Counted from the first letter of the stretch, positions 8,993 to 35,912 are shown. The stretch is 64,000 nucleotides of DNA from an uncultured Armatimonadia bacterium (GCA_964549395.1 CAZJVY010000006.1:6972-70971), one strand, 5' to 3'. Made by a program: numbers and translations. Notes: generated by a model not told the origin, from the sequence alone.

Positions 8993-8994
8993 CA

Positions 8995-18494: not shown

Positions 18495-18588
18495 TGATGT
18501 TCAGTTTGCCTGCTTCACCGCTGCAACCATCTTCTGCATAGACGACAGAGCGCCCCCTGATGTTGCAGGAGTTTTCACCCCTGCCGCC

Positions 18589-19794: not shown

Positions 19795-22700
19795 CTTACT
19801 AACCCGAATAGTAGTATACCCAGCAACACCCCGCTCAGAACATGCCAGTTCACGTGAGCCTGTGCCGACGCCAGGTGCGGCGCAACAGCGAGCAGTGCCA
19901 TGCCCGTACCCAGGAGCAATCCGGCCACCAGCAGGCCGCCGTTCTCCAGCAGCAGTACGCGAACCACTTTCGGGCGGTGGAAGCCCACTGCCAGCATCAG
20001 CGCCAGCTCCGACCTGCGCTCCAGAGCACTGCGCAGCAGCACGGTCACAAGGCCGGCAGTACCCAGCAACAGACCGAGGCCGCCCAGAGCCAGGAACATG
20101 GACAGATACGTGTTCTGTACCCCAATGAACTCGTTGAGTACCTCCCGTGTGGTTCGCACCCGCACTCCCATGTCTCCCAGATTCGTGCGCAGGATTGCGG
20201 CGATGTTGTCCTCACGCCCCGGCGGGACATCAAGCAGGAAGTAGCTTGGAGCACTCACCGACGGGAAGAGCGTGTGGAAACTGTCCTCGGATACCAGGAC
20301 CTCCCGCTGGAAGATGCTCCCTGGAAGCACTCCCACGAATCGCAGACTGACGGGCCTCAAGGTATCCGTCGGGATCTGATACGTCTTGCCCAGCCCCGAA
20401 TGCAGTGTCCACTGCACGCTGGCTGCGTCGCCGAAAGCCGGAATGGTGTCATCCGCTGCAGGCTGCTCCAGGAGGCTCCAGGGCTGGTCGGCGAAGCTGT
20501 CGCTCACAGTGCCCGGTGAGAAACCACCGCGTTGTATCATGGTGTGGGGGACGCCAAGGATGCGCGGGTGACTGGGGCGCGCGATGTTCAGGCAACTGAT
20601 GTCCTCTCCCTGGCTTGCCAGGAAAGACACGACCTTGACATCCGCGAAAGCCGCTTCGTCATCAGCCGAGAAGCCCAGGTTGCTCCGTCCTGCCGGCGTG
20701 CCCAGGTCGAAGGACAATGGGACCGATGAGGTGGCCTGCAGTTCGAAGCCTCCGGTGCCGGAACTCCGGTCCGTGGGGTCCATCCGCGAGAAATCGCGGG
20801 AATTGGCGGCGACGGCCACGATGACGAAGGTGGCGGCGGCGAGCAGGCCTATCACCAGCAGACTGCGGCTTGCGCTTGCCGCGGCGTTCCGTGCCGAGAA
20901 AGCCGGCAAGGAGCGGGTAGCACCCCTCAGGCGCAGTGTGCGGGACAGCAGCAGAGCGGATGCCGCCAGTGCTGCCAGCAGGAGTGCGAAGCCGATTCCG
21001 AAGAAAGCCACCTGCGGCGCGAGCACTCCCACAACCGCTAGCAGGCCCAGAGCAGGCGCTGCAGTCAATGTCAATATGAGTAGGAACACCACCCGTCTGC
21101 TGCTTGGTCGCACCACAGATACGGCCATTCCACGCCACCCGCCAAGGAGTTCCAGAACCTCCAGACGACCGAGGTGCCGTGCACTCCAAAACGTAGTGAG
21201 CAGCCCGATAACCAGACCTGAGACGGCGCCGGTAACGATGCTGCCAGCCGTCACGTGCAGCCACAGGGATGGAGCCGCACCCAGAGCCCCGCTCCACCAG
21301 CTAGTGAGGGCGTGTATGATGCCGGCCGCATACAGCAGCCCTGCCGGGACCCCGGCCGCCATCCCCAGCACGGTCAGGATTGCACCTTCGGCGAAGATTG
21401 CTCTCTTGACGAGAGCAGGGGGCACGCCGGTGGCCAACATGATCCCGACCTGTGACGCCCGCCGGTCAATTGAGAGGCGCAGCAGCATTCCCCCGAGACC
21501 GGCACCGGATAGCACCAGGAACATGCTCAGGCCCAGGAGAAGCTGGCCGAAATCCGAGGTGCCCTGTGCCGCCCTCAGCGCCAGCTTACGCACCGGACGG
21601 AAGACAAGCCCTTCAGCAGGCGGGGGCGTGCGTTTCATCAGCATCTTGGTGAACAGCTTGCCGAACTTGCCCAGTGTGGTATCCGGCGGTGGCACCATGC
21701 GGATTGAGGTCACCCAGTCGGCTTCGGATCCCTGCGGGCCGCTCTGCCACATCGCGCGTGCCGTATCGGGGCTTACAAAGCCTCTGGGAGTTGCCCTGTA
21801 CCTGTCCCAGTACTCCTCATCGCGGTCGGTGATGCGGCTGAAATCCACCGGGAATGGCGGGTCCCATTCGCCGATGCGAGCCGCATCGGTAATGCCCTCG
21901 AAGTCGGGCACCAGGGTGGGATCGGCGGCCGGCCCCGCCATCTCCACTATGCCCGTTACGGTGAGCTCCGTGTGCGCGGTCGGGTATGTGCCATCCTCCG
22001 TCGGGACCATGTATGTCAGGCGCAGGCGGTCGCCTACTGCGGCCTGGAGGTCTTCAGCCGCCCACGTATTGAGCCAGATGCCGCCCGGCTGCGGCCGCTT
22101 GCCGCTCCCGGCGCGCAATGTGAACGGCTGCAGCGGCTTCAGGCCTGCGATCATCGCATAGGCCGACTCCCTGCCACCGACTCCGTCAGCCCTGGTGATG
22201 GCCGTCGCCAGATAGACTGAAGCAGGAGTACTGCGTGCGTCGCAGCCGGCAGCCGCGCGGATTGCCGACTCGACCTGTCCTTCGGAAAGCAGGATGCCGT
22301 CGCCTACGAGTGATATGCAGTTGTGTCGAGCGTCGGGAACCAGCTTCAGTCCGAGGTCGGCGAGCGTGCGACCGCCTACTACCGCGTCAATCAGATCCCT
22401 CGCTGCTTCGGGTTGCGCCTCCGGTGCCACTGACGCGACGAGGACATTCATGGAATCTTGTTTGCCGAGGCGGTCGGCGAGCCACTGCCTGCCAATGAAT
22501 ACATTGCGCGGCGCTGCACTTTGGGCGTCCAGGCGGAAGTCACCCGCTCCTCCTGCAGGCAATATGTACTCGACCTGCACCCTCATCATCGGTGCAACGT
22601 GCTGTTTGTCGCGGCGGGCAAAGAGCGTTTCAGTTGATATCGCGCTCCGCTTGTGCACGGTCAGGAGAAGATAGTCGCCTTCGCGCAGACTGAGATCCCT

Positions 22701-23126
22701 GGCGAGGGCGGCGTTGACGGCACAGGCCCGACCGGAGAGCTCGGGCGTCTGGGGGAGATCGTAGAAGCTCCAGAAGCTGTCCTCTACGCCCCACACACTC
22801 ACATCGGGGACCGTGGCCTCCGTAGCGGGGTTGCGTGCCGCGCCGTTTGATGTGAGTAGAGCGGACAGGTTGCGAATGGACGCCGCTGCCGGTTGCGCGC
22901 GTATGTCATCCGCGAACTGCCGGCGGAGGTACCGGGGTGCCGTCATAGCATAGTCAATCCTACCGAGTCGCGCCAGAGCCGTATCGCGCAGGCTGCCACG
23001 CACCGAATCGCCGATGAGTAGCGAGCCGGTGATGACCGCAGTGGCCACACCGAGCCCGAAGACGACCACAATGCCTGTCTGCCAGTAGTACGCAAGGCTG
23101 CGGGAGATGAGGCTTCTCAGATTCAC
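19731..23126 (-). CDS. ABC transporter permease, MacB/FtsX-like with duplicated FtsX domains and large extracytoplasmic domains
   Basis: 1131 aa with multiple TM clusters. Translationally coupled to the upstream ABC ATPase gene. Confidence 0.65.
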   Translation of the reverse strand: MNLRSLISRSLAYYWQTGIVVVFGLGVATAVITGSLLIGDSVRGSLRDTALARLGRIDYAMTAPRYLRRQFADDIRAQPAAASIRNLSALLTSNGAARNPATEATVPDVSVWGVEDSFWSFYDLPQTPELSGRACAVNAALARDLSLREGDYLLLTVHKRSAISTETLFARRDKQHVAPMMRVQVEYILPAGGAGDFRLDAQSAAPRNVFIGRQWLADRLGKQDSMNVLVASVAPEAQPEAARDLIDAVVGGRTLADLGLKLVPDARHNCISLVGDGILLSEGQVESAIRAAAGCDARSTPASVYLATAITRADGVGGRESAYAMIAGLKPLQPFTLRAGSGKRPQPGGIWLNTWAAEDLQAAVGDRLRLTYMVPTEDGTYPTAHTELTVTGIVEMAGPAADPTLVPDFEGITDAARIGEWDPPFPVDFSRITDRDEEYWDRYRATPRGFVSPDTARAMWQSGPQGSEADWVTSIRMVPPPDTTLGKFGKLFTKMLMKRTPPPAEGLVFRPVRKLALRAAQGTSDFGQLLLGLSMFLVLSGAGLGGMLLRLSIDRRASQVGIMLATGVPPALVKRAIFAEGAILTVLGMAAGVPAGLLYAAGIIHALTSWWSGALGAAPSLWLHVTAGSIVTGAVSGLVIGLLTTFWSARHLGRLEVLELLGGWRGMAVSVVRPSSRRVVFLLILTLTAAPALGLLAVVGVLAPQVAFFGIGFALLLAALAASALLLSRTLRLRGATRSLPAFSARNAAASASRSLLVIGLLAAATFVIVAVAANSRDFSRMDPTDRSSGTGGFELQATSSVPLSFDLGTPAGRSNLGFSADDEAAFADVKVVSFLASQGEDISCLNIARPSHPRILGVPHTMIQRGGFSPGTVSDSFADQPWSLLEQPAADDTIPAFGDAASVQWTLHSGLGKTYQIPTDTLRPVSLRFVGVLPGSIFQREVLVSEDSFHTLFPSVSAPSYFLLDVPPGREDNIAAILRTNLGDMGVRVRTTREVLNEFIGVQNTYLSMFLALGGLGLLLGTAGLVTVLLRSALERRSELALMLAVGFHRPKVVRVLLLENGGLLVAGLLLGTGMALLAVAPHLASAQAHVNWHVLSGVLLGILLFGLVSCAIAVHSAVRGNLVAALRQE

Positions 23127-23839
23127 TGCCGTCCGACCTCTGTCTCTGCGGTATCCACGGGTGCAAGGCTGCCGTCACGCAGTTGCAGGCAGCGGCCGAA
23201 CCGCGACGCCTGCTCCAGGTTGTGGGTGACCATCAGCACTGTAACGCCCTGCTGCTCGGCCAGCTCCAGCAGCAGAGACACGACCGTCTGCCCGGTGTGG
23301 CGGTCGAGGTTGCCCGTCGGTTCATCACACAACAGCAGGTGGGCATCGTTTATCAACGCTCTGGCGACGGCAACTCTCTGGCGCTCCCCTCCCGAAAGCT
23401 GTGCGGGGAAGGCGTCTTGCCGGTCTGCAAGGCCGACGCGCTCGATCAGCCGCGTGGCCCTCGCATCGGCCTCCTTGCCTCCGGCATTCGCCAGCGTGGG
23501 CAGCAACACGTTCTCAACGGCCGTCAACTGGGGCAGCAGATGATGATCCTGGAAGACAAACCCCACTTGCGATGCGCGGAATGAAGCCAGTGCCTTGCCG
23601 TGCAGAGCGGTTACCTCGGTGTCACCGAGGCGTACCCGTCCTGATGTCGGTTTGTCCAGTGCTCCGGTAATGTTGAGTAGCGTGCTCTTGCCTGAACCTG
23701 AGGGCCCCACGACGGCCACGGTCTCACCAACACTGATCTGGCAGGAAACACCGTCCAGCACCGTGAGATCCGGCCCTCCCGCAATCGGGAACCGTTTCGT
23801 GATTTCCTGCAGAACGAGACCCTCTGCCGGACCTGTCAT
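23123..23839 (-). CDS. ABC transporter ATP-binding protein (LolD/MacB-type)
   Basis: Walker A GPSGSGKST, signature LSGGERQRVAVARAL, Walker B LLLCDEPTGNLD. Start placed at MTGPAEG (23839). Confidence 0.85.
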   Translation of the reverse strand: MTGPAEGLVLQEITKRFPIAGGPDLTVLDGVSCQISVGETVAVVGPSGSGKSTLLNITGALDKPTSGRVRLGDTEVTALHGKALASFRASQVGFVFQDHHLLPQLTAVENVLLPTLANAGGKEADARATRLIERVGLADRQDAFPAQLSGGERQRVAVARALINDAHLLLCDEPTGNLDRHTGQTVVSLLLELAEQQGVTVLMVTHNLEQASRFGRCLQLRDGSLAPVDTAETEVGRQ

Positions 23840-25407
23840 AGTAGCTCCTTGCGCAGGGCGAGTGCGGCCGTGGGGCAGGCCTCGGCACATTCGCGGGCCA
23901 CCTTCTCCAGCCCTGCTGCCAGTGTTTCGTTGAACGGTACTCCCACCACTATGTCGAATCCCCTGCCAACGAATGTGAGGCCCAGTCGCTCACGGGCGCT
24001 TTCTGCAATCTGCACGCACAGGCCGCAGGCGATACACTTGCCCGGCTCGTACACCAGGATGGGGTGAGTTGTCTCGCGCTGGAACGTCCGCCGGCCTTCC
24101 TTGTAGCGGGTAACGCTGGCATCGTAGGCGGTTGCCCACTTGCGCAGCTTACAGTCATCCTGCCCTACGCAATCGCAGTGCAGACAGCGCCTTGCCTCGT
24201 GTCCCGCTTCAGCATCGGAGAAGCCTGCTTGCTCGCCGCCAACGGGCGCAACCCGGTCATGCTCGGGAATGCCGGACGCAAACGCGCGCAATTCGTGCTC
24301 CTCTAACCGCCCAATGTGGACGGTATAGGGCCGCCCTGCGCCCCTGGCCTCCTCACCGGCCAGATAGCGGCAGATGGCAACTGCCGCCGACCTGCCGCTG
24401 CCAACAGCGCGCACGGCGTGCCGCGAAGGCGACAGCGCCGAGCCCGCCGCGAACACCTCCGGCGTCTCGGCCATGTGCGAATTGCGGTCAGCCTGCAGGC
24501 CTCTGCCGGACATGCTCAGGCCCAGGTCACCTGCAGCATCCCGCGACATCTCACCCGTTGCTACCAGAATGGCATCGGATTCCCCGCGCAGATCGTCTAT
24601 CGAGACATGCCGACCGACATGGACGCCGGTGCGGAGCTCCGCACCTAGTTGCAGAACGCGCTCTATCTCCGCGCCAAGGACATCGCGCGGCAGGACGTCC
24701 TCGGGAACGCCGTAGCGCAGCATGCCGCCCGGCTCCTCGTGGTCGTCAATGATCGTGCAGCCGTGTCCTGCCTGCATCAAGTAGTATGCAGCCGTGAGAC
24801 CCGCCGGACCGGCGCCGATTATGCCCACGTGCTTGCCGGTCGGCGGGCGGCACTCCGGCCGGTAGGGCTGTGCCGCAGCCAGATCCCAGTCGCCCACGTA
24901 CCGCTTCACCAGGCGTATGCCGACCGGACTATCCAGGTCTCCGCGCCGGCAGCCCTTCTCGCACAGCTCCGGACAGATCCGCCCCAAGGTAGCGGGAAAG
25001 GGAATGTGCTGCTTCACGGTCGCAGCTGCCTCCGCGATGCGCCCTGCGGCAACGAGTCTCAGCATCCTCGGGATGTCCATGTGTGCAGGGCAGATGCTTT
25101 GACAGGGACCTATGCAGTCACCCAGGTGATTCCCCAGCAGCAGCTCCAGCGCGTTGCGTCGTGCCGCCTTGACCTTTTCGCTCTCGCTTTCCACCACCAT
25201 GCCGTCGGTGGCCTCCGTGGCGCAGGCCGGCACCAGCCGCTCAGCCCCGTTCACTCTCACCACACATACCATGCAGGATGTCGGCGGCTTGCAGCCTTGC
25301 ACAAAGCACAGCGTGGGTATCTCGATGCCTAGCTTCCGGGCCGCGTCCAGAACGGTCGCACCCGCTTCGACTTCTACCTCCCGGCCATCTATGGTAAGCT
25401 TCGGCAT
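23836..25407 (-). CDS. FeS-flavoprotein: NuoG-N-terminal-type [2Fe-2S]/[4Fe-4S] domains fused to a GltD-like FAD/NAD(P)-binding domain plus C-terminal ferredoxin (StnA-like)
   Basis: MPKLTIDGREVEV...TLCF [2Fe-2S] start. HLGDCIGPCQSICP His-ligated cluster motif. GIIGAGPAGLTAAYYL dinucleotide fold. C-terminal CIACGLCVQIA. Confidence 0.65.
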   Translation of the reverse strand: MPKLTIDGREVEVEAGATVLDAARKLGIEIPTLCFVQGCKPPTSCMVCVVRVNGAERLVPACATEATDGMVVESESEKVKAARRNALELLLGNHLGDCIGPCQSICPAHMDIPRMLRLVAAGRIAEAAATVKQHIPFPATLGRICPELCEKGCRRGDLDSPVGIRLVKRYVGDWDLAAAQPYRPECRPPTGKHVGIIGAGPAGLTAAYYLMQAGHGCTIIDDHEEPGGMLRYGVPEDVLPRDVLGAEIERVLQLGAELRTGVHVGRHVSIDDLRGESDAILVATGEMSRDAAGDLGLSMSGRGLQADRNSHMAETPEVFAAGSALSPSRHAVRAVGSGRSAAVAICRYLAGEEARGAGRPYTVHIGRLEEHELRAFASGIPEHDRVAPVGGEQAGFSDAEAGHEARRCLHCDCVGQDDCKLRKWATAYDASVTRYKEGRRTFQRETTHPILVYEPGKCIACGLCVQIAESARERLGLTFVGRGFDIVVGVPFNETLAAGLEKVARECAEACPTAALALRKELL

Positions 25408-25410
25408 AGG

Positions 25411-27900
25411 CTATTCAACCATTACCGCATCAACCGGACAGACCTGCCGGCAGGTGTCGCAGCGGATGCACTTCTCGGCATCAATTTCGTGTTGCTGGTA
25501 CGGTTCCATTGCGATGGCCTGCGCCGGGCAGTGCTGGGCACACCTGGTGCAGCCGATGCACTTATCGGTGATGCGATAGGTGATGAGCGCCCGGCATCTC
25601 CCGGCCGGACATCTGCCCTCCAGATGCGCCTCGTACTCATCCCGGAAATAGCGCAGCGTCGTGAGAACGGGGTTCGGCGCGGTCTGACCGAGGCCGCACA
25701 AGCTCGTCGTCTTGACCATCAGCGCCAGTTCTTCCAGCTTCTCGAGGTCGTCCTGTTTGCCCTGGCCGGTGCAGATCCTCTCCATGATGTCCAGCATCCT
25801 GCGCGTGCCCACTCGACAGGGGGTGCACTTGCCGCACGATTCCCGCTGCGTGAACTCCAGGAAGTAGCGGGCGACATCGAGCATGCAGTCGCTGTCATCG
25901 AGGACCACTAGCCCGCCGGATCCCATGATGGCGCCGGCACCCACCAGTTCCTCATAGTCAACAGGCATGCCGGCCAGCTCGGCGGGTATGCAACCGCCGG
26001 AGGGGCCGCCGATCTGCACCGCCTTGAAGCGGCGGCCCTCACCGACACCTCCGCCGATCCGCTCCACAATCTCGCGGATCGTGATGCCCATAGGCACCTC
26101 GATGAGGCCGCCTCGCTTCACTTTTCCCGTTAGGGAGAAGACCTTCGTGCCCTTGCTGTGTCGGGTGCCGAATTCGGTAAATGCCTCCGGGCCGTTGCGG
26201 ATGATGAATGGCACCAGGGCGAGGGTCTCCACGTTATTCACGCATGTGGGGCGGCCCCACAAGCCGCTCTGAGCGGGGTAGGGAGGACGCAGATGTGGGC
26301 TGCCCCGGCGGCCCTCTATCGAGGCTATCAGCCCGGTCTCCTCCCCGCAAACGAACGCCCCCGCACCCTCCATGATGCTCAGACGAAGCCCGAAGTCGCT
26401 GCCGAAGGGATCATCCCCCAGCAGCCCCTGCTCCTCGCATATCTGGATCGCTTCCCATACCCGCCTTACAGCCAGGGCGTACTCGGTTCGTATGTACAGC
26501 AGGCCCTCGCGCGCTCCCACGGCATAGGCCGCGATTGCCATGCCCTCCAGCACCCGGAACGGATACGACTCCAGCAGCATCCGGTCCATGAAGGCCCCGG
26601 GATCGCCCTCGTCCCCGTTGCAGATGATGTACTTCACGTCTCCGGGCGCATCAGCCACCGCTCGCCACTTGGGGCCGGTCGGGAAGCCTGCCCCACCACG
26701 TCCGCGCAGGCCGGATGCGGCCACAGTCTCGATCACCTGGTCCCGCGTCAACTCCGATACGCACGTGCGCAGCGCCTCAAAGCCGTTGTGGTGAAGATAC
26801 TCCCCGATGTCCAGTGGGCCGGCCGTGCCGTGCAGTTCTGTAGCAATGTGCTTCTGCGCGTTCAGAAATGCCGACACGCTGTCGCCGTGTACATCCAGTG
26901 CCTGGCGCGTCACCGGCTTCCAGGACTGGTCGGTGAGAATCTGTTCGAGCGCCTGGTCAACCGTTGTCCTTATCTTGCGAAGCAGCCCGCGCGGCCGGAA
27001 GTGGTGGCGAATGACGGCCTCCGCATCCTCAGGCTGGACGCGTGCATAGAGTGCGGGCGCCTCTCCAGGCACCAGCACCTCGACAAGCGGCGTCTGATGG
27101 CACATGCCCACACATCCGACCGGCTTGACCACGGCCGGCGCTCCCAGTGCGTCCAGCGCCTCCTGCATCGCGACTAGCACATCCATGCTGCCACTGGCAA
27201 TGCAGCACGAGCCCACGCCGATGCGGACTTCCGCCACGCCCTCTGCCGGCGCGTCTGCTGATGCCGGGTGGCGCTCCAGGGCGCCGCGCCGCCGCAGTTC
27301 CAGAAAGTCCGTGACCATCTGCGGGACGCCGTCTGGCGTCAGATGGCCGTATGTCACGCCGTCAATCTGGACCACTGGCGCAAGAGTGCAGCAACCCAGG
27401 CAGTCCACCCGCTGAACGGTGAACAGGCCGTCCTGCGTCGTGTCGGCTCCCTCGTCGAGGCCGAGGTGTCTGCTCAGCGCCTCGCTTATCAGAGACGCGC
27501 CCTTGACGTGGCAGGCCGTGCCGTGGCACACGCTGATCAGATGCCGGCCGACGGGACTGTGCCGGAAGCGCGAATAGAAAGTGGAAACGCCGGTGATGGC
27601 CGCGGGGGTAATCTCCGTAATCTCACAGACGCGGCGCAGGGCTTCCTGCGGCAAGTAGCGATAGTGACCTTGCAGGGCCTGGAGAATGGGGATGACGGCG
27701 TCCAGCTCGCGCCCCAGTTCCTCGACGATCTCATCAACGAAGTCCAGATCGAGCGCTTCCTCGTCAGGGGGTGCATTATCATCGCATGGTACGGGGGCGC
27801 TGTCGAAACCGGCAGGGGCTGAGGTGGACGTATCCGAACACTCGGTAGTCCCTTCAACTGTGTAGCCGTCTGATGCCTCTGGTGGCACGCTTCCATTCAT
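25411..27900 (-). CDS. NuoE-like [2Fe-2S] thioredoxin-like domain fused to NuoF-like FMN/NADH-binding 51-kDa domain with two C-terminal [4Fe-4S] ferredoxin motifs (HydB/StnC/FdhB-like)
   Basis: CHGTAC...CLGCC NuoE motif. Second thioredoxin-like SCCIASGS...GCVGMC. GRGGAGFPTG...CNGDEGDPGAF NuoF signature. SCGKCTPCRVG cluster. CIGCTRCAQHCP and CIRCDTCRQVCP. Confidence 0.75.
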   Translation of the reverse strand: MNGSVPPEASDGYTVEGTTECSDTSTSAPAGFDSAPVPCDDNAPPDEEALDLDFVDEIVEELGRELDAVIPILQALQGHYRYLPQEALRRVCEITEITPAAITGVSTFYSRFRHSPVGRHLISVCHGTACHVKGASLISEALSRHLGLDEGADTTQDGLFTVQRVDCLGCCTLAPVVQIDGVTYGHLTPDGVPQMVTDFLELRRRGALERHPASADAPAEGVAEVRIGVGSCCIASGSMDVLVAMQEALDALGAPAVVKPVGCVGMCHQTPLVEVLVPGEAPALYARVQPEDAEAVIRHHFRPRGLLRKIRTTVDQALEQILTDQSWKPVTRQALDVHGDSVSAFLNAQKHIATELHGTAGPLDIGEYLHHNGFEALRTCVSELTRDQVIETVAASGLRGRGGAGFPTGPKWRAVADAPGDVKYIICNGDEGDPGAFMDRMLLESYPFRVLEGMAIAAYAVGAREGLLYIRTEYALAVRRVWEAIQICEEQGLLGDDPFGSDFGLRLSIMEGAGAFVCGEETGLIASIEGRRGSPHLRPPYPAQSGLWGRPTCVNNVETLALVPFIIRNGPEAFTEFGTRHSKGTKVFSLTGKVKRGGLIEVPMGITIREIVERIGGGVGEGRRFKAVQIGGPSGGCIPAELAGMPVDYEELVGAGAIMGSGGLVVLDDSDCMLDVARYFLEFTQRESCGKCTPCRVGTRRMLDIMERICTGQGKQDDLEKLEELALMVKTTSLCGLGQTAPNPVLTTLRYFRDEYEAHLEGRCPAGRCRALITYRITDKCIGCTRCAQHCPAQAIAMEPYQQHEIDAEKCIRCDTCRQVCPVDAVMVE

Positions 27901-29915
27901 TCGCTGGTTGCTCGGCTGCCTATGCAGTAGAGATGCTTCTCGCCCCGGATGTAGATCCTGCCGTCCACGTAGGCGGGCGTAGCGCGTATCGCCTCAGTGA
28001 TTTTGCCCGTAGAGACGGCCTTGAACTTGCGCGCGGCCTCGAAGATGTGCATGACCCCGCGCGTGTCGGCGATGTAAACATGCTCGCCCACCACGGTCGG
28101 AGACGACACCAAAGACGCCTTCAAGTCCTGCTGCCACAGCTTCTTGCCGTCCTTTGCGTCATAGCACGTAATCAGGCCGTAGCTGGCCGCCACAAACACC
28201 AGCTCACCGTTGCTGACCGGACTGGTGGTATCCGGCAGTCCCTCGCTGGCCGACCAGACTACCTCACCTTTGGTGCCCTTGCCCGGCGCCGGAGGGCGAA
28301 TGGCGAACAGGCCGGCACTCTCGCTACAGGCGAACACCAAGCCGCCCGCATAGCATGGCGTCGAAGCGATATCGCCGCTCAGACATTCGGCGCGCCAGAG
28401 CTCCTCGCCAGTGGCAGCATTGTAGGAGATGACCCAGGGGTCGGCGCTGGTGATGATCTCGTCGCGCTCGGCGGTGTTGACGACAATCGGGCTGGCCCAC
28501 GAGTTGGGGACCGGCCGCTTCGTCCGCCACACGGCCTTCCCATCGCCGGCATCGAGCGCAATCAGCGCCGACAGGCCATCTGCTGCGCTATATCCCTGAT
28601 CGAGCTGTATGATGACAATGTTGCGGTACGTCGCCAGCGAAGACGCATGACCGTACACGTTGTCCGGAGTGCCCAACGTCTTCGCCCACACCTGCTTGCC
28701 TTCCAGATCGAAAGCCGCCACGTCGCCGTTGGCGAATATCGCGAAGACTCGTTGCCCGTCGCACGCCATCGTAGGAGCGGCGAAGCCCGTATCTTCCGAG
28801 ACCTCGGGCGCCTCGTCGTTGGCACTCGCATCAATCAACACCTGGTGTTTCCAGGCCATTTCGCCCGTGTTTGCATCAATGCAGTACACGCCACGGCGCT
28901 TCTCATCGGCGCCGGTCACAAACACTTTCCCATCCCAGAAGGCGGGGGAGCTGTGGCCGGGCAGGGGTATGTCCGCCTTCCACAGCACCCCTTCGCTCTT
29001 GGCACCATCCCAGCGCGTCGGATACCCGCCCGCAGCGATGATGCCTGATGCGGACCCCCGAAATGACGGCCAGTTCCTGGCGCGTTCTTCTGCCGTCGGG
29101 TATGTCCCCTCCAGGTCCGCAGTGCCGCCGGCGGCAGGCGACTGGTCGCCCTTGGGCGGCTTATCCTTCTTCTCGGGCGCCGGCTTCTCGGCAGGTGGAC
29201 TAGGGGGCCCCGGCTCCCCGCGAGGGCCACGGGGACCCGAAATGCCTGCGGGCCCGGGAGGTCCTGGAGGACCCGGAACCGCAGCCGGCGGCGCAGCCTC
29301 GGGGGCCGGTGGTTGCTGCGTCTCTTCCTCAGGAGGCCTGGTGCCGTCGAGTGGCTTCTCACCCGTGTCGGATGCCGCCGCCAGACGTGCAGCCTTGACG
29401 TATTCCGAGGATGCATCATGCCGGGCGAGGACGGCTACAGTAAGAAGGACCCCCGCCATGACAATGCCCAGGATGGCAACCGACCGCCGTGCCAGAGCGG
29501 CCTCAACCCAGAACTCCCGAGCGCGCGAGGGCTGCGGCGCTGGGGCCTTGGCCCGGAATCGCGCAACCACGTGCAGGGATGCCAGCAACACGGCCAGACC
29601 TCCCAGCAGCAGATAGACGCCGGTGATGGCCCGTGCCCGGGTGGTGAAGTACGTGCTGCGTATGTATTCATCCAGTGCACGGATATGCTGCCTGAGCTGG
29701 TCGTTATCCGGCTGCCTGGCCAGCTCCGCCTTAAGCGCATCTATCCGCGCCGGCTGCAAGGGGTCGGCCGCCCGCCCCTGCGCCAGGTTTGCCACCAGCA
29801 AACCGAGCACCACCAGGCAGAAAACGAACGCCAGTGCCGCAGTTGCCAGCGCAGCCTGGTAGTAAAGGTTGTGGCGAGCGATTTCCTCGGCTTCCCCGAG
29901 CGGCTCTTCGCTCAT
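27897..29915 (-). CDS. membrane-anchored (3 TM) PQQ/BamB-like beta-propeller protein with collagen-like GXY linker
   Basis: Three N-terminal hydrophobic helices. GPPGPPGPAGISGPRGPRGEPGPP. NWPSFRGSASG then propeller blades. Confidence 0.65.
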   Translation of the reverse strand: MSEEPLGEAEEIARHNLYYQAALATAALAFVFCLVVLGLLVANLAQGRAADPLQPARIDALKAELARQPDNDQLRQHIRALDEYIRSTYFTTRARAITGVYLLLGGLAVLLASLHVVARFRAKAPAPQPSRAREFWVEAALARRSVAILGIVMAGVLLTVAVLARHDASSEYVKAARLAAASDTGEKPLDGTRPPEEETQQPPAPEAAPPAAVPGPPGPPGPAGISGPRGPRGEPGPPSPPAEKPAPEKKDKPPKGDQSPAAGGTADLEGTYPTAEERARNWPSFRGSASGIIAAGGYPTRWDGAKSEGVLWKADIPLPGHSSPAFWDGKVFVTGADEKRRGVYCIDANTGEMAWKHQVLIDASANDEAPEVSEDTGFAAPTMACDGQRVFAIFANGDVAAFDLEGKQVWAKTLGTPDNVYGHASSLATYRNIVIIQLDQGYSAADGLSALIALDAGDGKAVWRTKRPVPNSWASPIVVNTAERDEIITSADPWVISYNAATGEELWRAECLSGDIASTPCYAGGLVFACSESAGLFAIRPPAPGKGTKGEVVWSASEGLPDTTSPVSNGELVFVAASYGLITCYDAKDGKKLWQQDLKASLVSSPTVVGEHVYIADTRGVMHIFEAARKFKAVSTGKITEAIRATPAYVDGRIYIRGEKHLYCIGSRATSE
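29205..29276 (-). repeat. collagen-like Gly-X-Y triplet repeat (8 triplets) within CDS 27897-29915
   Basis: GPP GPP GPA GIS GPR GPR GEP GPP read directly from the translation (aa 214-237). Confidence 0.8.
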
Positions 29916-31207
29916 GGCGCCTCCTCCGTCAATCCCACGTCGGCCTCTTGACTCCCCGCACGCTCAACGGGACACGACGCATAACAGCGGGCGCAGGCAA
30001 CGCACGTCGCGGGATCGGCCTGGTACTCATCACGACGACGGCGGATTGATGCCCCAACCGTCTTCAGCCCGAGCACCAGCCCAATCCAGGCTCCCAGTAG
30101 CCAGGAGCCGGTGTTGAAACTGCCTCTGATTGCAGCAGCCTCCCGGTAGGCATCCATCGGCGGCGTCGCCTGAATGTGAAATGCCTCGGTGGCCTCCGTC
30201 TTGCCCTCCACAAGCCCCTGTTCCTCCAGCCACAGCCGGTCCGCCAGGCGCACGGCCGGATGAACCTGTGCCAGCAGGGGACTGCCCAGTCGCACCAGCC
30301 CCGCGCCCGCTGCAATGAGCACCGGCAGCAGTAGCAGTGCCGTCGCCAGGCGTGCCTTTGCCGGTTTTCGGTTCACGCTCTCCCCTTGCGGAGTGGGCGG
30401 CCTGATGGCTCCATAGGGGCACGCATCAGCGCACAGATGGCAGTTCACGCACTCAGCCGGGCTGATACTGGCTCGCCAGCGGGCAAGCGGCGACACGATC
30501 TGCAGCAGCGCTCCATAGGGGCACGCATACCGGCAGTACGGCCGCCCCACGACCGTGGCCAACAGCAGCACCGCGACCCCGACGATCAGCATTGCAGCGC
30601 TGCCGCCTAGCCGGAAGAACAGCACGAACGGGTCAAACTGGCAGATGATGAACGCACTGCCCGTCGCAGCGAAGAGCACCGCCGCACCCAGGTAGAGATA
30701 GGGCACGGTAGCCAGCGCGCTATCCAGCCAGCTCGGTACTCTCACAGGCCGGAAGAGCACTACTTCCTGGGCGGCCCCCAGCGGGCACACGGCGGCGCAG
30801 AACACCCGCCCGAAGAAGAGCGCGAACAGCAATGGCAAGAGAAAGAACACGCCCGCCGCCAGGGGCAGCACGTAATCGGCGTTCGAGAGCGCGAGAGACA
30901 CGTTCTGGATCGCGCCTATCGGGCATACGCAGCCGCGGCGGTAGAAGCCGAAGTACAACAGCGAAAACAGCACCAGCACGACCAGTTCGCGCCGCGAACG
31001 TCTTTTCAGAGACAGATAGGCCGCCAGCGCCAGCGCCACGAACAGCACCGCGACGTCCATGTATGACAGGATATCGGGGCGTGGCGACGGCGTGGTGACA
31101 TCGGGAAACCAGTAGCCCTTGCTGAATTCCGGCGGCGGGAATCTCTCAATGGCAAAAACCGCCACCGGAAGACAAAGCAGCAACAGCACCTGGCAGGCAG
31201 CTCTCAA
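29912..31207 (-). CDS. NapH/MauN-like integral-membrane polyferredoxin (4Fe-4S binding)
   Basis: Several TM helices with CX3CP motifs (FCAAVCP, YCRYACP) and two C-terminal CxxCxxCxxxCP ferredoxin motifs. Confidence 0.7.
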   Translation of the reverse strand: MRAACQVLLLLCLPVAVFAIERFPPPEFSKGYWFPDVTTPSPRPDILSYMDVAVLFVALALAAYLSLKRRSRRELVVLVLFSLLYFGFYRRGCVCPIGAIQNVSLALSNADYVLPLAAGVFFLLPLLFALFFGRVFCAAVCPLGAAQEVVLFRPVRVPSWLDSALATVPYLYLGAAVLFAATGSAFIICQFDPFVLFFRLGGSAAMLIVGVAVLLLATVVGRPYCRYACPYGALLQIVSPLARWRASISPAECVNCHLCADACPYGAIRPPTPQGESVNRKPAKARLATALLLLPVLIAAGAGLVRLGSPLLAQVHPAVRLADRLWLEEQGLVEGKTEATEAFHIQATPPMDAYREAAAIRGSFNTGSWLLGAWIGLVLGLKTVGASIRRRRDEYQADPATCVACARCYASCPVERAGSQEADVGLTEEAP

Positions 31208-31222
31208 TATCCGTCTCCCGGT

Positions 31223-31798
31223 CTATTCCTTGGTTCGCAGCAGATACGGCTTGTTTGCCGGCACGCGAACGATGGCATCCGATGGGCATACGTTCGCGAT
31301 GGCGCACTGATTGCAGTTGATGCAGCGGTCATGCCGAATCTGCAGGATGAGCGAGCCGTTCCCGTAATCCCGGCACCCCTTCACGCAGGCTCCGCAGCCG
31401 ATGCACTTGGACTCGTCTATCACGTACTGGTAATAGGGATCCTCAATGAAGCTGCGGCTGATCGCATTGGTGGGGCATCGCTGGTTCTCGGCGCCTTCGG
31501 TGTCATCCGCGCGCTTCTCGGCTAGATAGCCGAAGCAGAGGTCGCAGTACCCGCACATTGCGTACTCGTGCACGCACTTGACTGCCGAGGGGTTCAACAC
31601 ACATGCCGTGGCGCACTTCCCGCATTGCGTGCATTTGGCGGGGTCCACCTGCCACACGTACTCATTGGCGTTCCCCCGAGACACCAGCGCCCCGAGCAAC
31701 CCACCGGTGAACAGCAGACCGGCGCCTCGCGCGGCCTGGGTCAGGAACTCGCGCCGGGTCATCGTCTCGCGCTCGTCTGTGGAAGGCTCTAGGGACAT
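31223..31798 (-). CDS. Tat-exported NapG/MauM-like ferredoxin with four [4Fe-4S] motifs
   Basis: Twin-arginine motif TRREFL. CTQCGKCATAC, CGYCDLC...CP, CIGCGACVKGC, CINCNQCAIANVCP. Confidence 0.7.
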   Translation of the reverse strand: MSLEPSTDERETMTRREFLTQAARGAGLLFTGGLLGALVSRGNANEYVWQVDPAKCTQCGKCATACVLNPSAVKCVHEYAMCGYCDLCFGYLAEKRADDTEGAENQRCPTNAISRSFIEDPYYQYVIDESKCIGCGACVKGCRDYGNGSLILQIRHDRCINCNQCAIANVCPSDAIVRVPANKPYLLRTKE

Positions 31799-32019
31799 TG
31801 CTCTCCTTCGCTTGCGCCAGCCCGTTTCGCCGATAGTGCCTGCGGCAGATGGCAGGCCTCAAAAGCGCCACAACCCCGGCAGATGCCCTGGTTGATGCAT
31901 TCTTCGCTGTTGCGGGTCATCAGCGCGCCGACGCCGCCGCCCAACAGCAACGCAACGCCATACCTGCCGATATCGCGCAGGAATTCACGCCTGGTCATTC
32001 TGCCCGGCTTCTCCAGCAT
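31789..32019 (-). CDS. tiny Tat-signal Cys-rich periplasmic protein (mature part about 40 aa, 6 Cys)
   Basis: MTRREFL Tat motif then CINQGICRGCGAFEACH...EQCP. Overlaps the next gene start by 10 nt. Confidence 0.45.
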   Translation of the reverse strand: MLEKPGRMTRREFLRDIGRYGVALLLGGGVGALMTRNSEECINQGICRGCGAFEACHLPQALSAKRAGASEGEQCP

Positions 32020-32045
32020 CGCGACCTTTCTCCTGGGAACGCCTG

Positions 32046-33062
32046 CTACTTTCGGGCAAACACCTTCACGGTACCCGCCGCCGGGTCCATCACGTAAATG
32101 CGCCCCTCACCGTCCACGGCCAGATCCAGGCCCGCCGCTTTCGGCGAGAAATCGTCCGGCACGGCGACTACACTCTCGAGCGTGCCGTCGCGGTTATGTA
32201 CCTTCACGCGCGGCAGGCCCTTCTCGCTGGTGACTATCCTGCCGTCCGCCAAAACCGCGATATCAGTGGGGTTACAGCAGCCGCAGAAGCCGTCAATCTC
32301 CTGTGATGGCTTGCCCCATGTTGACTTGAGAGTCCCATCCGCCGCGTATGTCCCGACCGCGTGGCGGCCGGGATTGTTGACGATGAGCGTCTGCTCCGGC
32401 CCCAAGGCCACATCGAGATGCGGACTGGGCAGCAGCAGGCCCGGCACACCCTTGCCCTCATCCTTCTCGCCGATCCTGCCCAGCAAGTCGCCGGACTTGC
32501 TGTAGTGCAATACGACGCGGTTTCCGGCATCCCCGACCCAGACATCCTCACCTGAGACAACCAGGCTGGTCAGGTAGGCGTTCTCACCCGGCAGTGTCCA
32601 GCCGGCCTGCACATTGCCCTTGGTGTCGTATGCGACTATCCCCGTGCGCAGGCCGATCCACTCAGTCTCGTCTTCGCCCAGCGCAATTGCGTACGGCGGC
32701 TCAGGCAGTTGACGCTGATAGTTGCAGTGGCCCTGTGCATCGAACACGCGGAGGCCGCTGTCGCCGACCGCATAGAGACTTGCCGCCTCACCGAATGTCA
32801 CCGCGATCCCGCGCGGCTCGTCAAAGCCGGTCGCGATTTGGCTGACTTGCTGGTACTTGACGAGCGCCGGGTCAACCTGCCGCAGTGCGCTCATGTCATC
32901 ATTCGACTGCCGCACGGCGCTTTCGGTATGAGAGCGGATTTCGGAGCGGCTGAGTTCGTAGCAGCCACTGACGGCCACTAGCAGCGATAGAAGAGCGACA
33001 CGCCCAGGCTTCAGGGCCGGGCCGGACTTACTGGCGAGTTGTGAGCCGGTACGCCTGCTCAT
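32046..33062 (-). CDS. NHL-repeat (6-bladed beta-propeller) lipoprotein
   Basis: Lipobox LLVAVSGC. Repeated DG-x-x-Y/V-x-D blades with a CGCCNPTD motif. Confidence 0.5.
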   Translation of the reverse strand: MSRRTGSQLASKSGPALKPGRVALLSLLVAVSGCYELSRSEIRSHTESAVRQSNDDMSALRQVDPALVKYQQVSQIATGFDEPRGIAVTFGEAASLYAVGDSGLRVFDAQGHCNYQRQLPEPPYAIALGEDETEWIGLRTGIVAYDTKGNVQAGWTLPGENAYLTSLVVSGEDVWVGDAGNRVVLHYSKSGDLLGRIGEKDEGKGVPGLLLPSPHLDVALGPEQTLIVNNPGRHAVGTYAADGTLKSTWGKPSQEIDGFCGCCNPTDIAVLADGRIVTSEKGLPRVKVHNRDGTLESVVAVPDDFSPKAAGLDLAVDGEGRIYVMDPAAGTVKVFARK

Positions 33063-33063
33063 A

Positions 33064-34638
33064 TCAGGTTCCCGTCACGTCAACACAGACCATGCTGGTC
33101 AAATCGCGGGCCAGCAACCGGCCGCCAACGATGACCAGCGGGCCCCATGGCTCCGACCCGCTGAGTATCTTCGCCCTCCCGAGCTCCTTATACCCGCCCG
33201 GGCCGGCCTCCACCATCACCAGCTCGCCGGCGTCGCTCATCACGTAGATCTTGCCGTCGGCGATGATGTACGGATTGATGCCGAAACGAGCCGTGCCGCT
33301 TCGCCAGATCGTCTTGCCGCTCAGGTCAATGCAGGAGAGTTCCTTGCTGGGTATGACCCCGTAGATGTGGTCATTGTACAGGATCGGCGTTTGCTGGTGC
33401 GAGCCGAACACTTCAGCGGAAAGCCGCTGCGCGATGGATGCATTGGAGCCGCTGATGCGGATGAATGCCGCCCCCGCGCCGTAGCCGCCGCAGACGAAGA
33501 TGCGGCCGTCGCCGATCGGTACGGCTGACGGGACGTTGGCCGTCTTGACGGTCCACTCGCTGGTCTCCCATGCTAGCGAGCCGTCGCCTGCCGAGACCCC
33601 CACAACGCCGCCGCTGGCCGGATAGACGTACGTCTTCTTGCCGCCAAGGCTGATCGGTACAATCGAGGAATGGGTCATCTGCCAGCCGCGCGGATTGGGC
33701 GTTCGCCAGACTTCCTTGCCCGTCGCCAGGTCCACAGCGACCATCAGCGCGCTGCCGCCCGGCGCGAGAATGACCCGATTGCCGTCAATCAGCGGACACT
33801 GCCCGGCATACCAGGAGGGCACCTGGGCGCCGTACTGGCTGACCATGTCAATCTTCCACTGCACGCTGCCGCCGGCCGTGTCGCAGCACATCACGTGGCA
33901 TTTCGGCCCCAGGCTTACAACATACTTGCCGGTAACCGCAGGGACTGTGCGCGACATGCCATGGTTGCGCTTAACCTCAACCGGATACGACTGCGACCAG
34001 ATCTGTTTGCCGTCAGACAGGGACAGGCAGAGCAGTTCGTCGGCCCCGTTGGCGTGGTCGTAGTCCAGCAGATACACGCGTCCATCGAGCACCGCTGGTG
34101 CCGCATATCCCTCACCAAGCTGGCGCGACCACAGCTTGCGCGGCCGGCCTGCACCCCAGCTATCGGCCAGCGAGATGCGTTCTTTGCTTATGTTGTCGAA
34201 ATCGGCGCCCCTGAAGCGCAGCCAGGCACCAGTAGGAGCGCCGGCACCGGCGGAAGGCGTCGAACCTGCCGTCCCCGCCGCAGATGCCGCTGTGGTTGCC
34301 GCCGCACCCGCACCGGACACAGCAGGCCCCGACGTGGCGGTAGCGGGACCGGCAGCAGGTTGTGATGATGTCGCCTGTCCCGTGACTGCTGCGCGGTCTG
34401 GCAGCCGAGGCAGGACATCGCTTACCTGCGGGGCAGTCCTCAGCCACAACACAACGGCCGCTATCCCGATTGCGGCGACAACCGCCGGTATGCCGACCGT
34501 CACCAACAGATTCGCGCGTCTCCGCCCCTTCTTGCGCCGCACAGGCGCCAGGGATGCCGTATCTGCGGTCCGGCGGCTGCTGCCAAGACGTACAGATGAA
34601 GGTGTGCGACGACTCAACGACCCCGGCCGCTTCTCCAT
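33064..34638 (-). CDS. single-TM-anchored PQQ/BamB-like beta-propeller protein with Ala/Thr/Ser-rich linker
   Basis: TM helix LLVTVGIPAVVAAIGIAAVVLWL. Low-complexity linker. AWLRFRGADFDN then propeller blades. Confidence 0.65.
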   Translation of the reverse strand: MEKRPGSLSRRTPSSVRLGSSRRTADTASLAPVRRKKGRRRANLLVTVGIPAVVAAIGIAAVVLWLRTAPQVSDVLPRLPDRAAVTGQATSSQPAAGPATATSGPAVSGAGAAATTAASAAGTAGSTPSAGAGAPTGAWLRFRGADFDNISKERISLADSWGAGRPRKLWSRQLGEGYAAPAVLDGRVYLLDYDHANGADELLCLSLSDGKQIWSQSYPVEVKRNHGMSRTVPAVTGKYVVSLGPKCHVMCCDTAGGSVQWKIDMVSQYGAQVPSWYAGQCPLIDGNRVILAPGGSALMVAVDLATGKEVWRTPNPRGWQMTHSSIVPISLGGKKTYVYPASGGVVGVSAGDGSLAWETSEWTVKTANVPSAVPIGDGRIFVCGGYGAGAAFIRISGSNASIAQRLSAEVFGSHQQTPILYNDHIYGVIPSKELSCIDLSGKTIWRSGTARFGINPYIIADGKIYVMSDAGELVMVEAGPGGYKELGRAKILSGSEPWGPLVIVGGRLLARDLTSMVCVDVTGT

Positions 34639-34884
34639 TTGTGCCCCACAATGCAGGGCAGCCCCGTTGGCTGACTGCCCTCGAGTTGGCTACTGTGTAC
34701 AGATATGCTATGCAATGTCTGCCATGGTGTCAAGCTCAAGGCACCTTGGCGGCCCTTCAGTCGGAAGCTACCCTCCCCTCTTAGGCAAGAAGGTGCGCCA
34801 GATAGGTCTCTAAGGGGGGCCCACTGGGTCAAATGACGCCCCATTTACCGCCCAGGTTCACACCCTTAACGGCTCAAGACGGAT

Positions 34885-34902
34885 ATGTTTCACGTGAAAC
34901 AT
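34885..34902. promoter_or_regulatory. perfect 18-bp palindrome ATGTTTCACGTGAAACAT in a divergent intergenic region (candidate operator)
   Basis: The left half is the exact reverse complement of the right half. Sits in an AT-richer stretch and is followed by a TTGAC-like hexamer. Confidence 0.4.
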
Positions 34903-35057
34903 TTATTGACCGAACCGCTGCAAGCAGCCTATCAACCGCTCACAGAGGAAAGGCAGGCCCCAAAGGCGAAGAAATGCGCGAACGTAAGCGACGGAACACG
35001 GGGCGGTGGCGAAGTCTGAAGAATGCCTCAACGGATCGTTCGGAGAGCGAAGAACCC

Positions 35058-35912
35058 ATGTATGCGACAGTGGTAATCGCCCGCAGCAGCGCCGGCACCT
35101 CCGAGCGCGCTGCCATCGAGGAGGAACTGGGCGGTCTGTGTGTCGCTCGCGGCCTCGACACGGTGCTGGTGCCGGACCTCTACCACGTGGCCGACCGGAG
35201 CCACATCTGGGAGGTGCTTGCAGCGCTACCCGGGCCGATTGTGGTTTTTGGCCGGCTGTATCCGCGCCCCCTGGAGTGGCTGCTGCGGTCTCACGGTGTC
35301 GGAGAGGACGGCCTGCGTGCATTTGACCTGGGGGCCTATGAGGATGCCCGTAGTGCCCTGAGGGCGGCTTTGCCGGGACAGCCGCAGGAGCCCGGTATCG
35401 CACCGGGCCGCCTTCAGGAGCTGCAGGAAGCTGTTGCGCCGCGCTGGTACCCGCTGGTGGATCGGTCGCGCTGCACCAACTGCCGGCACTGCCTCCAGTT
35501 CTGCATCTTCGGCGTCTATGAGCTTGATGAGGCGGGCCATGTCACGACGAAGAGCCCCGACAACTGCAAGCCGGGCTGTCCGGCGTGCGCTCGCGTTTGC
35601 CCCAACTCGGCGATCATGTTCCCCCTGCACGCGGATGACGAGGCAATCGCCGGCGCTCCTGGCAAGTTCGTAACCATGGACGCAGCGGCCCGCCGCATGT
35701 ACTACCTGCGCACCGGCGCGCGGTGCCCGAAGTGCGGCCTGGACGCAGCAGCGCCTCCAGCGGCGGGACGGGGAGGCGAGAAGTGCGCCGAATGCGGGCG
35801 GCGTCTGCCAGATTCCCACGCGACACCGGCGGAAGCGCCGCGTTCCGAGGTTCTGGACGAGATTGATGCTCTCATCAACGAGCTCGACAATCTCGCCCAT
35901 GGGAGTCAGTAG
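35058..35912 (+). CDS. 4Fe-4S dicluster ferredoxin-domain protein with C-terminal CxxC...CxxC ribbon
   Basis: CTNCRHCLQFC and CKPGCPACARVCP, then CPKCG...CAECG. Start at ATG 35058 with a GGAGAG RBS. Upstream ORF extension is Arg-rich low complexity. Confidence 0.5.
   Translation: MYATVVIARSSAGTSERAAIEEELGGLCVARGLDTVLVPDLYHVADRSHIWEVLAALPGPIVVFGRLYPRPLEWLLRSHGVGEDGLRAFDLGAYEDARSALRAALPGQPQEPGIAPGRLQELQEAVAPRWYPLVDRSRCTNCRHCLQFCIFGVYELDEAGHVTTKSPDNCKPGCPACARVCPNSAIMFPLHADDEAIAGAPGKFVTMDAAARRMYYLRTGARCPKCGLDAAAPPAAGRGGEKCAECGRRLPDSHATPAEAPRSEVLDEIDALINELDNLAHGSQ

Follow-up and report, generated by a model that had tools for sequence, protein, structure and literature searches.

A 64,000-nucleotide stretch of DNA from an uncultured Armatimonadia bacterium (GCA_964549395.1 CAZJVY010000006.1:6972-70971), referred to throughout as the window, encodes on its minus strand a 672-residue protein in which eight uninterrupted Gly-X-Y triplets lie within a Pro-rich linker that joins a three-helix membrane anchor to a BamB-like β-propeller. 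As far as sequence can tell, the run is a real collagen-type segment under selection at the protein level and not low-complexity noise. Orthologues that lack the run carry other linkers or very short ones, and hence we consider it somewhat more probable than an even chance that the segment is one version, specific to its lineage, of a variable and interchangeable spacer, and not an element that defines the protein. The target gene and the parts of its product are listed below, with positions counted from the first letter of the window.

27897..29915, minus strand: target gene for the 672-residue protein, with three-helix membrane anchor, variable spacer and BamB-like propeller (list of open reading frames, homologues, Pfam PQQ_2 at 122.7 bits)
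29370..29915, minus strand: N-terminal membrane domain, residues 1-182 (hydropathy, AlphaFold2 (AF2), invariant columns)
29793-29849, minus strand: hydrophobic helix 1, residues 23-41 (hydropathy)
29562-29618, minus strand: hydrophobic helix 2, residues 100-118 (hydropathy)
29424-29480, minus strand: hydrophobic helix 3, residues 146-164 (hydropathy)
29073..29423, minus strand: variable spacer, residues 165-281, 117 residues with 27 Pro and 14 Gly (linker extraction, AF2)
29274..29339, minus strand: acidic Pro-rich flank, residues 193-214, RPPEEETQQPPAPEAAPPAAVP (translation)
29202..29273, minus strand: collagen-type run, residues 215-238, GPP GPP GPA GIS GPR GPR GEP GPP (translation, Pfam Collagen, codon analysis)
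29136..29201, minus strand: basic Pro-rich flank, residues 239-260, SPPAEKPAPEKKDKPPKGDQSP (translation)
27900..29072, minus strand: eight-bladed BamB-like β-propeller, residues 282-672, starting at NWPSFRG (AF2, Foldseek)

Translation gives the eight triplets, GPPGPPGPAGISGPRGPRGEPGPP, as an earlier note on this DNA had claimed them, without interruption, within the linker. The setting described in that note held up equally well: the run is flanked by Pro-rich sequence, acidic on the N-terminal side and basic on the C-terminal side, and it lies between a membrane anchor, indicated by hydropathy and AF2 helices N-terminal to it, and the BamB-like propeller C-terminal to it. Eight in-phase Gly residues were not reached in any of 200,000 shuffles of the 117-residue linker, nor in 200,000 shuffles of its 60-residue Pro/Gly-rich core, the highest count seen being seven. 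Across the six frames of the window the target run is the sole run of at least eight triplets, and in related loci totalling 1.24 Mb, runs of at least six triplets that are rich in Pro were confined to orthologues of the target; a lineage-wide habit of building collagen linkers was rejected for that reason. Tandem Repeats Finder (TRF) found no DNA tandem repeat in the run and all four types of Gly codon are in use, in scrambled order, which rules out a recent slippage array as its origin and indicates that the periodicity resides in the protein, not in the DNA.

The Pfam Collagen profile (PF01391), a search for which had been proposed in the earlier note, does match residues 214-241 (E 0.0021), but at 18.2 bits it falls short of the gathering cutoff of 27.2; precomputed PF01391 matches are present in many orthologues with longer runs. 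Under the definition of a collagen-like domain as at least six contiguous, uninterrupted Gly-X-Y triplets, the eight triplets of the target are included, and a 2025 survey counted 58,002 domains of at least six triplets outside human collagens, so that collagen-like segments are not as rare as the earlier description of them as uncommon implied (PMC11923368).

That the run might be a compositional accident of a GC-rich (65%) and Pro/Gly-rich region, or the result of reading the wrong strand or frame, has a negligible probability. The GC content of the window (61-66%) and an antisense open reading frame (ORF) that is likewise Gly/Pro-rich in translation (28660-29616, plus strand) would be in keeping with such an origin, but the shuffles described above, the hundreds of homologues of the minus-strand frame with conserved anchor and propeller, and the conservation of both position and phase of the run among them rule out chance, a GC artefact or the antisense ORF as its source. 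A 100% identical protein (P0001) is present in public collections on an independent JGI metagenome contig, indicating that the triplet phase is reproducible. The antisense ORF itself, of 318 residues, overlaps the linker-coding region, and its translation includes GPGSPRGPRGPEMPAGPGGPGGPG; it shadows the strand that encodes the collagen run, and gene callers could be misled by it.

A homologue search found 641 proteins, of which 120 are listed. Uninterrupted runs of 6-24 triplets occur at the matching position in 33 of these 120, in phase, so that both conservation of the run in orthologues and variation in triplet number, for which the earlier note had suggested looking, were found. The target, with eight triplets, is near the low end of this range: in its closest clade the runs comprise 7-11 triplets, unbroken although their flanks diverge, as against 11-24 elsewhere. 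The 600 triplets of 42 distinct orthologous segments contain not a single interruption. In the same set the X position is occupied by Pro (59%), Ala (12.5%) and Glu (5.0%), and the Y position by Pro (41%), Ala (26%), Arg (8.5%), Gln (7.3%) and Glu (1.7%); these asymmetries, with Pro and Glu in X and Pro, Arg and Gln in Y, are those that would be expected of triple helices. GPP triplets are denser at the C-terminal end of the runs (0.38) than in the middle (0.20), where charged triplets are concentrated. Since collagen folding nucleates at the C-terminus (PMC11923368), the GPP-rich C-terminal end agrees with a segment moulded by the constraints of a triple helix.

In one clade (P0044, P0049, P0051, P0052, P0055, P0059, and P0066), a helix of approximately 30 residues continues from the third membrane helix directly into 19-24 triplets, which stop 12-20 residues short of the propeller, and helix and triplets together give a fully structured stalk. 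All 14 named carriers of the Gly-X-Y run belong to Armatimonadota, and the loci with runs of at least six triplets are named Armatimonadetes, Armatimonadia or Candidatus Zipacnadia (a class of Armatimonadota) only. In one locus (L007, 361-478), two overlapping Gly-X-Y runs of 10 and 8 triplets lie in different frames of the orthologue linker, which suggests an assembly frameshift in the collagen-coding stretch of that metagenome-assembled genome (MAG).

The family to which the target belongs was found in at least 567 species in a scan with one genome per species, and its hosts include Armatimonadota, Planctomycetota, Bacteroidota (among them the cultured Marinifilum flexuosum DSM 21950), Verrucomicrobiota, Poribacteria, and Chlorobiota. 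For a comparison of synteny, 80 loci from at least six phyla were kept, and in nearly all of these the gene order around the target (listed further below) is maintained wherever the contig reaches, identifying relatives without the run as orthologues. The linker is the hypervariable part of the family, ranging from 16 to 172 residues among the 120 homologues. In the long-linker clades it measures 103-172 residues with a Gly-X-Y run and 97-144 residues without one, a similarity that bears out the earlier view of the linker as a spacer, and it is from such comparisons that we infer this function; short linkers are found in other clades (16-51 residues) and in most Planctomycetota and Poribacteria proteins (16-50 residues).

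The replacements for the collagen segment are of several kinds. An orthologue from another uncultured Armatimonadia MAG (L028, match 10001-11185) has an (EPTPNP)n spacer, the orthologue of Marinifilum flexuosum DSM 21950 (L049, match 10001-11896) has a Glu/Lys-rich spacer that may form a single α-helix, and three further Armatimonadota loci (L009, L010, and L017) encode Pro/Ala/Ser-rich or Gly/Ser-rich spacers. In a neighbour-joining tree of the propeller domain, carriers of the run are interleaved with run-less long-linker proteins, and remnants of the periodicity such as PPGPPASMGPPA persist in P0025, P0027, P0036, P0041, P0042, and P0048, which lack the run and have Pro-rich linkers of the same length. 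The interleaving, together with these remnants (for example in P0048 and P0025), points to repeated loss or decay of the run. A collagen stalk thus does not stand as a requirement, because syntenic orthologues without the repeat, which the earlier note had itself named as counting against its proposal, do exist and have other spacers or very short linkers; the stalk is not needed for the function of the protein. The rise per residue is nearly equal for the collagen helix and for polyproline-II, so that alternative spacer designs would give a similar reach.

The constant parts of the family stand on either side of this linker, in the order three-helix domain, variable linker, YPxxEExxxNWPxFRG motif and propeller, and the mean column identity of the family alignment across phyla is 46%. 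The three-helix anchor described in the earlier note is recovered by hydropathy and backed by AF2 helices at residues 8-49, 53-67, 72-122, 129-164, and 168-182 in a monomer model based on an alignment of 25 sequences. No Pfam or NCBIfam family matches the N-terminal domain, which, when used as the sole query, retrieved 768 representative clusters, nearly all with a propeller following. Three of its residues, R79, D82, and R86 (motif IRxLDxxxR; residues 79-86, nucleotides 29658-29681), are invariant across phyla and lie in the helix preceding the second membrane helix, where they might make up a site for docking or function; many family members also have an RHDxxxEY motif right after the third helix. 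The target bears the marks of the family in having R79, D82, and R86, an NWPxFRG propeller start and a gene placed between those for a NapH-like protein and a NuoEF protein.

The propeller was modelled by AF2 with a predicted local distance difference test (pLDDT) score of 85-97 over residues 282-669, and a Foldseek search against the PDB returned BamB proteins as its top matches (target TM-score 0.72-0.80, identity 15-19%). The target shares its eight-bladed fold, and a Pfam PQQ_2 match, with BamB and with PQQ dehydrogenases, but differs from both in its low identity to BamB, its three-helix anchor without a lipobox and its lack of PQQ-enzyme inserts. Assignment as BamB was rejected following sequence searches against the PDB and NCBIfam: scores fall far below the equivalog cutoffs (TIGR03300, 97.7 against 285.2; NF008351, 71.6 against 423), and in place of the lipobox, lipoprotein signal and outer-membrane tethering of BamB the N-terminus is a three-helix membrane domain. 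A PQQ-dependent alcohol or glucose dehydrogenase was likewise ruled out by score (TIGR03075, 60.3 against 480; TIGR03074, 27 against 833) and by size, the propeller comprising ~390 residues as against ~550-600 in PQQ dehydrogenases with their cofactor-binding inserts.

As a triple helix the run, which accounts for 24 of the 117 linker residues, would span ~7 nm. In the host-guest data of Persikov and Brodsky, GPR is reportedly about as stabilising as Gly-Pro-Hyp, and a rough additive estimate from such values puts the melting temperature (Tm) of a free 24-mer at ~10°C. Hydroxyproline is generally missing in bacteria (PMC11923368), and no prolyl hydroxylase was found near the gene among the ORFs scanned, which cover the window up to its last ~8 kb. 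In yeast cells, unhydroxylated (Pro-Gly-Pro)10 was triple-helical at 16°C and not at 30°C, (PGP)13 was helical at 30°C and not at 37°C, and (PGP)23 was helical at 37°C (PMC11533527). With so few unhydroxylated triplets, a weak GIS among them and (PGP)10 not helical at 30°C, the rigid trimerising stalk of the earlier note overstates the segment taken alone, and it is unlikely that eight such triplets trimerise by themselves. Pfam and NCBIfam recognise no trimerisation domain in the target, a helix abutting the triplets in another clade only; a role in trimerisation or nucleation might fall to the propeller, to the membrane domain or to the complex. Three features would suit an obligate, rigid, homotrimeric collagen stalk that would drive oligomerisation and hold three propellers out across the periplasm: the unbroken and conserved Gly phase with collagen-like X and Y preferences, the placement of the strongest unhydroxylated triplets (GPR and GPP) at either end of the run, and the fully structured stalk of the clade with 19-24 triplets. 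The 64-residue gp12 of phage SPP1, moreover, forms trimers with a central collagen-like fold (PMC6316719), indicating that short collagen segments can trimerise, at least where something else keeps the chains together. Such a stalk is nevertheless quite improbable for the target, given the small share of the linker that is collagenous, its sub-threshold profile score and weak GIS triplet, the behaviour of (PGP)10, the syntenic orthologues with non-collagen or very short linkers, and the lack of an adjacent trimerisation domain in the profile searches. At the other extreme, the segment might never be triple-helical and might serve as a monomeric tether, extended as polyproline-II or disordered, its periodicity being either the relic of a longer collagen domain or kept for a stiff, protease-resistant and non-sticky spacer. 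This we regard as possible but doubtful, because a neutral relic should gather Gly interruptions and the 600 triplets contain none, because short runs are intact in proteins only 50-65% identical overall, and because triple-helix packing is the only known structural reason for Gly at each third residue; it would, however, account for the runs of the target's clade being the shortest, for the loss of periodicity in sister groups that kept Pro-rich linkers of equal length, for the nearly equal rise of polyproline-II and collagen, and for the lack of structure in the AF2 linker. Given how strictly the Gly phase is conserved, it is plausible that the helix forms at times or under certain conditions, and for the target we put a triple helix in vivo at about even odds, with higher odds for relatives with 20-24 triplets.

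As for the orientation of the protein, a periplasmic propeller (N-terminus in, C-terminus out) is very likely. Two secreted paralogues from the same operon (18589-19794 and 17271-18494) have the related motifs DWASFRGG and DWPQFGG (DWxxFxGG) immediately past their signal peptides, and for one of them the alignment with the propeller of the target begins at this motif. An LPS (lipopolysaccharide) heptosyltransferase gene in the window indicates a diderm envelope. Over 99 homologues, Lys and Arg number 10.7 in the 54 residues of loop 1, 5.5 in the 28 residues of loop 2, 2.0 in the N-terminal tail and 1.6 in the flank past helix 3. A fusion ORF in ENA (P0160, 1136 residues) joins a NapH-like protein to the N-terminus of a target-type protein, and since the C-terminal Fe-S domain of the NapH-like part must be cytoplasmic, the fusion implies a cytoplasmic N-terminus for the target; if real, it is weak evidence both for this topology and for physical association with the NapH-like protein. 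The converse arrangement, in which linker and propeller are cytoplasmic (N-out/C-in) and the propeller is tethered to the NuoEF/GltD-like module, agrees with a charge count slightly in favour of loop 1 being inside and with the position of the gene directly between the NapH-like and NuoEF genes, and long Pro-rich cytoplasmic linkers do exist, as in FtsK. It is very unlikely, however, in view of the secreted paralogues, the periplasmic location of BamB as the nearest fold, the short and strongly basic loop 2 with a near-invariant Arg just ahead of helix 3, and the fusion; to our knowledge, the bacterial collagen-like domains so far characterised are all extracytoplasmic. Of the earlier proposal of a spacer across the periplasm, the spacer stands, whereas the orientation it assumed is left undecided by the positive-inside count. 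Several observations limit the reading of the linker as an interchangeable, at most conditionally helical, periplasmic spacer. Residues 181-264 of the linker have a pLDDT below 50 in the monomer model, and three copies of the linker concatenated as a single chain gave an uninformative model without secondary structure (pLDDT 53.8, predicted TM-score (pTM) 0.13), which is given no weight either way. That the Gly phase is strictly kept in short runs as well speaks for actual formation of the helix, which would need an oligomerising element. A simple TopPred-style reading of the ambiguous positive-inside count would put the C-terminus in the cytoplasm. The P0160 fusion, finally, is a singleton cluster from two contigs that a frameshift or a read-through artefact could explain, and a search with its junction found only separate NapH-like proteins.

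The gene lies in a cluster whose order is anchored propeller, NHL lipoprotein, NapG-like, NapH-like, target, NuoEF and GltD-like, and whose members around the target are as follows.

33064-34638, minus strand: PQQ_2 propeller with a single-pass (type II) anchor (predicted extracytoplasmic; synteny)
32046-33062, minus strand: NHL-repeat lipoprotein, lipobox LLVAVSGC (predicted extracytoplasmic; synteny)
31789-32019, minus strand: small protein of 76 residues with a twin-arginine translocation (TAT)-like signal, MTRREFLRDIG, and a Cys-rich tail, CINQGICRGCGAFEAC (translation; no Pfam match)
31223..31798, minus strand: NapG-like 4Fe-4S ferredoxin, twin-arginine signal MTRREFL (profile and signal analysis, synteny)
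29912..31207, minus strand: upstream neighbour, NapH-like membrane polyferredoxin, 431 residues (Pfam Fer4_5 and NCBIfam NapH/MauN, below cutoff)
25411..27900, minus strand: downstream neighbour, NuoE-NuoF fusion with 4Fe-4S domains, 829 residues (Pfam/NCBIfam, synteny)
23836..25407, minus strand: protein with 2Fe-2S and GltD-like NAD(P)H flavoprotein domains, 523 residues (profiles, synteny)

The ATG of the target shares four nucleotides with the stop codon of the upstream gene and its stop codon shares four with the downstream start, and the NapH-like gene adjoins the target in nearly all related loci. TAT signals, a lipobox or a type II anchor are present in other members, and the cluster (window 17271-34638, minus strand; loci L002-L084) often runs on into an ABC ATPase, an FtsX-type permease of 1131 residues and more propellers. 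The pairing of NuoEF with a GltD-like protein presumably resembles NADH/NADPH-linked flavin modules such as the Stn-type transhydrogenases. NapH-like proteins are regarded as modular transmembrane electron-transfer units (PMC8238504). The likely role of the cluster is to pass electrons from NAD(P)H in the cytoplasm to an acceptor in the periplasm; no description of it was found in the literature searched. The 76-residue Cys-rich protein could be a small metal or Fe-S protein of the periplasm, and in two loci (L002 and L003) ORFs of 71-74 residues without a Pfam match occupy the same place. The NHL-repeat lipoprotein bears an unusual GFCGCCNP motif.

Taken together with the spacer series, this context suggests a working picture in which the target is a core subunit of a widely conserved redox cluster, its three-helix domain embedded in the inner membrane, probably next to the NapH-like protein, and its spacer holding the BamB-like propeller ~10-35 nm away on what is presumed to be the periplasmic side. 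In one Armatimonadota lineage 6-24 collagen triplets are built into this putative distance-keeping tether, and other lineages use (EPTPNP)n, Pro/Ala/Ser-rich or Glu/Lys-rich spacers of similar length, or nearly none. The target run would form its short triple helix only if the membrane domain or the complex already holds three chains together, and once zipped it would stiffen the tether and bundle three propellers. A subunit that is trimeric beforehand, with its triplets zipped in vivo, would amount to three propellers held in the periplasm as a collagen-stalked “bouquet”, part of a widespread NAD(P)H-linked, NapGH-type electron-transfer complex, an arrangement that we put forward tentatively and consider unlikely on present evidence.

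Streptococcus Scl1/Scl2 and Bacillus anthracis BclA have the same general plan as the target, namely an anchor, a Gly-X-Y stalk of variable triplet number and a globular head. They contain no hydroxyproline and depend on Pro and charged residues for stability, as the target segment would. Their stalks, however, comprise tens of triplets with a trimerising, nucleating head and belong to the cell wall or exosporium, where they serve in adhesion or form a surface nap, whereas the target has eight triplets, a polytopic inner-membrane anchor, a BamB-like head and a place in a redox cluster. A run of closely similar length is said, after Zairi et al. in 2014, to occur in SPP1 gp12, with about eight GXY repeats. 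This protein and the collagen-like tail-fibre proteins of prophages resemble the target in having very short collagen-like cores (PMC6316719; PMC3368898), but are soluble viral structural proteins unrelated to it in sequence, context, and function. Burkholderia Bucl8 likewise carries a collagen-like segment on an integral membrane protein that belongs to an envelope machine of several subunits, and its recombinant CL-Ct portion formed a triple helix by circular dichroism (PMC7682875). In this case, however, the collagen part belongs to an outer-membrane efflux component, faces outside and binds fibrinogen (PMC7682875), whereas the target is anchored in the inner membrane and its collagen part lies within a linker that is most likely periplasmic.

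TonB offers a parallel for the flanks. It too combines an inner-membrane anchor, an acidic and then a basic Pro-rich stretch, a C-terminal globular domain and a periplasm-spanning spacer, and the flanks of the target, PPEEE...PAPEAAPP followed by PAEKPAPEKKDKPPK, show the same charge pattern. TonB differs in having no Gly-X-Y core and a single membrane helix and in working with ExbBD, and the target has no homology to it; membership of the TonB family was rejected because no Pfam match to TonB, including TonB_C, was found in the target and its anchor has three helices, leaving a likeness in charge pattern only. The eukaryotic collagens XIII and XVII, MARCO/SR-A, C1q, and the collectins resemble the target in presenting three heads on an anchored collagen stalk with a helix or coiled coil beside the triplets (compare the clade of P0052 and P0059), but they are hydroxylated, far longer, proven trimers and evolutionarily unrelated, so that the analogy is one of design only.

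In the literature searched, no papers were found that link collagen-like sequences with Armatimonadetes or with the target family, and nothing relevant was found on collagen-like sequences with PQQ-type propellers. The target adds a modest new case to the bacterial collagen-like proteins, not a new kind. What is new is the setting: earlier cases were surface adhesins, spore naps, and phage fibres, whereas here the segment is part of a tether within a polytopic inner-membrane protein of a redox gene cluster. The orthologue series amounts to a natural spacer swap, in which one anchor and one head are joined by collagen, polyproline-type, charged or near-zero linkers, and it could serve to test the role of tether length and stiffness in the cell envelope. 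Should the triple helix prove true, it would fix the trimer stoichiometry of the complex in hundreds of species of Armatimonadota, Planctomycetota, Bacteroidota, Verrucomicrobiota, and other phyla. A collagen-stalked trimer would, in addition, give bacteria an equivalent of the membrane collagens and collectins and make the spacer series (0-24 triplets, polyproline-II repeats, Glu/Lys-rich) a molecular ruler matched to envelope width. Considered alone, an eight-triplet run below the profile threshold is a modest curiosity, and the conserved NapGH-like/NuoEF cluster is the more intriguing object.

Beyond the anchored propeller, a divergent set of genes (34833-42219, plus strand) encodes a Fer4 protein, a radical S-adenosylmethionine (SAM) protein, a squalene-hopene-cyclase-like protein, a DUF116/polyprenyl synthetase fusion and a prenyltransferase-like protein. 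In seven loci (L002, L003, L005, L010, L011, L017, and L039), six of them named Armatimonadota, the redox cluster is adjoined by the leading three or four of these genes, and the set may represent a cluster-linked pathway for lipids of the terpenoid or hopanoid type. Elsewhere in the window, the region 2703-16749 (plus strand) contains two very large proteins of 1014 and 1087 residues with Heparinase II/III-like domains, which flank the type II secretion system (T2SS) genes F and E and several prepilin-like DUF1559/N-methyl proteins. A B12-binding radical SAM gene is present at 336-1820.

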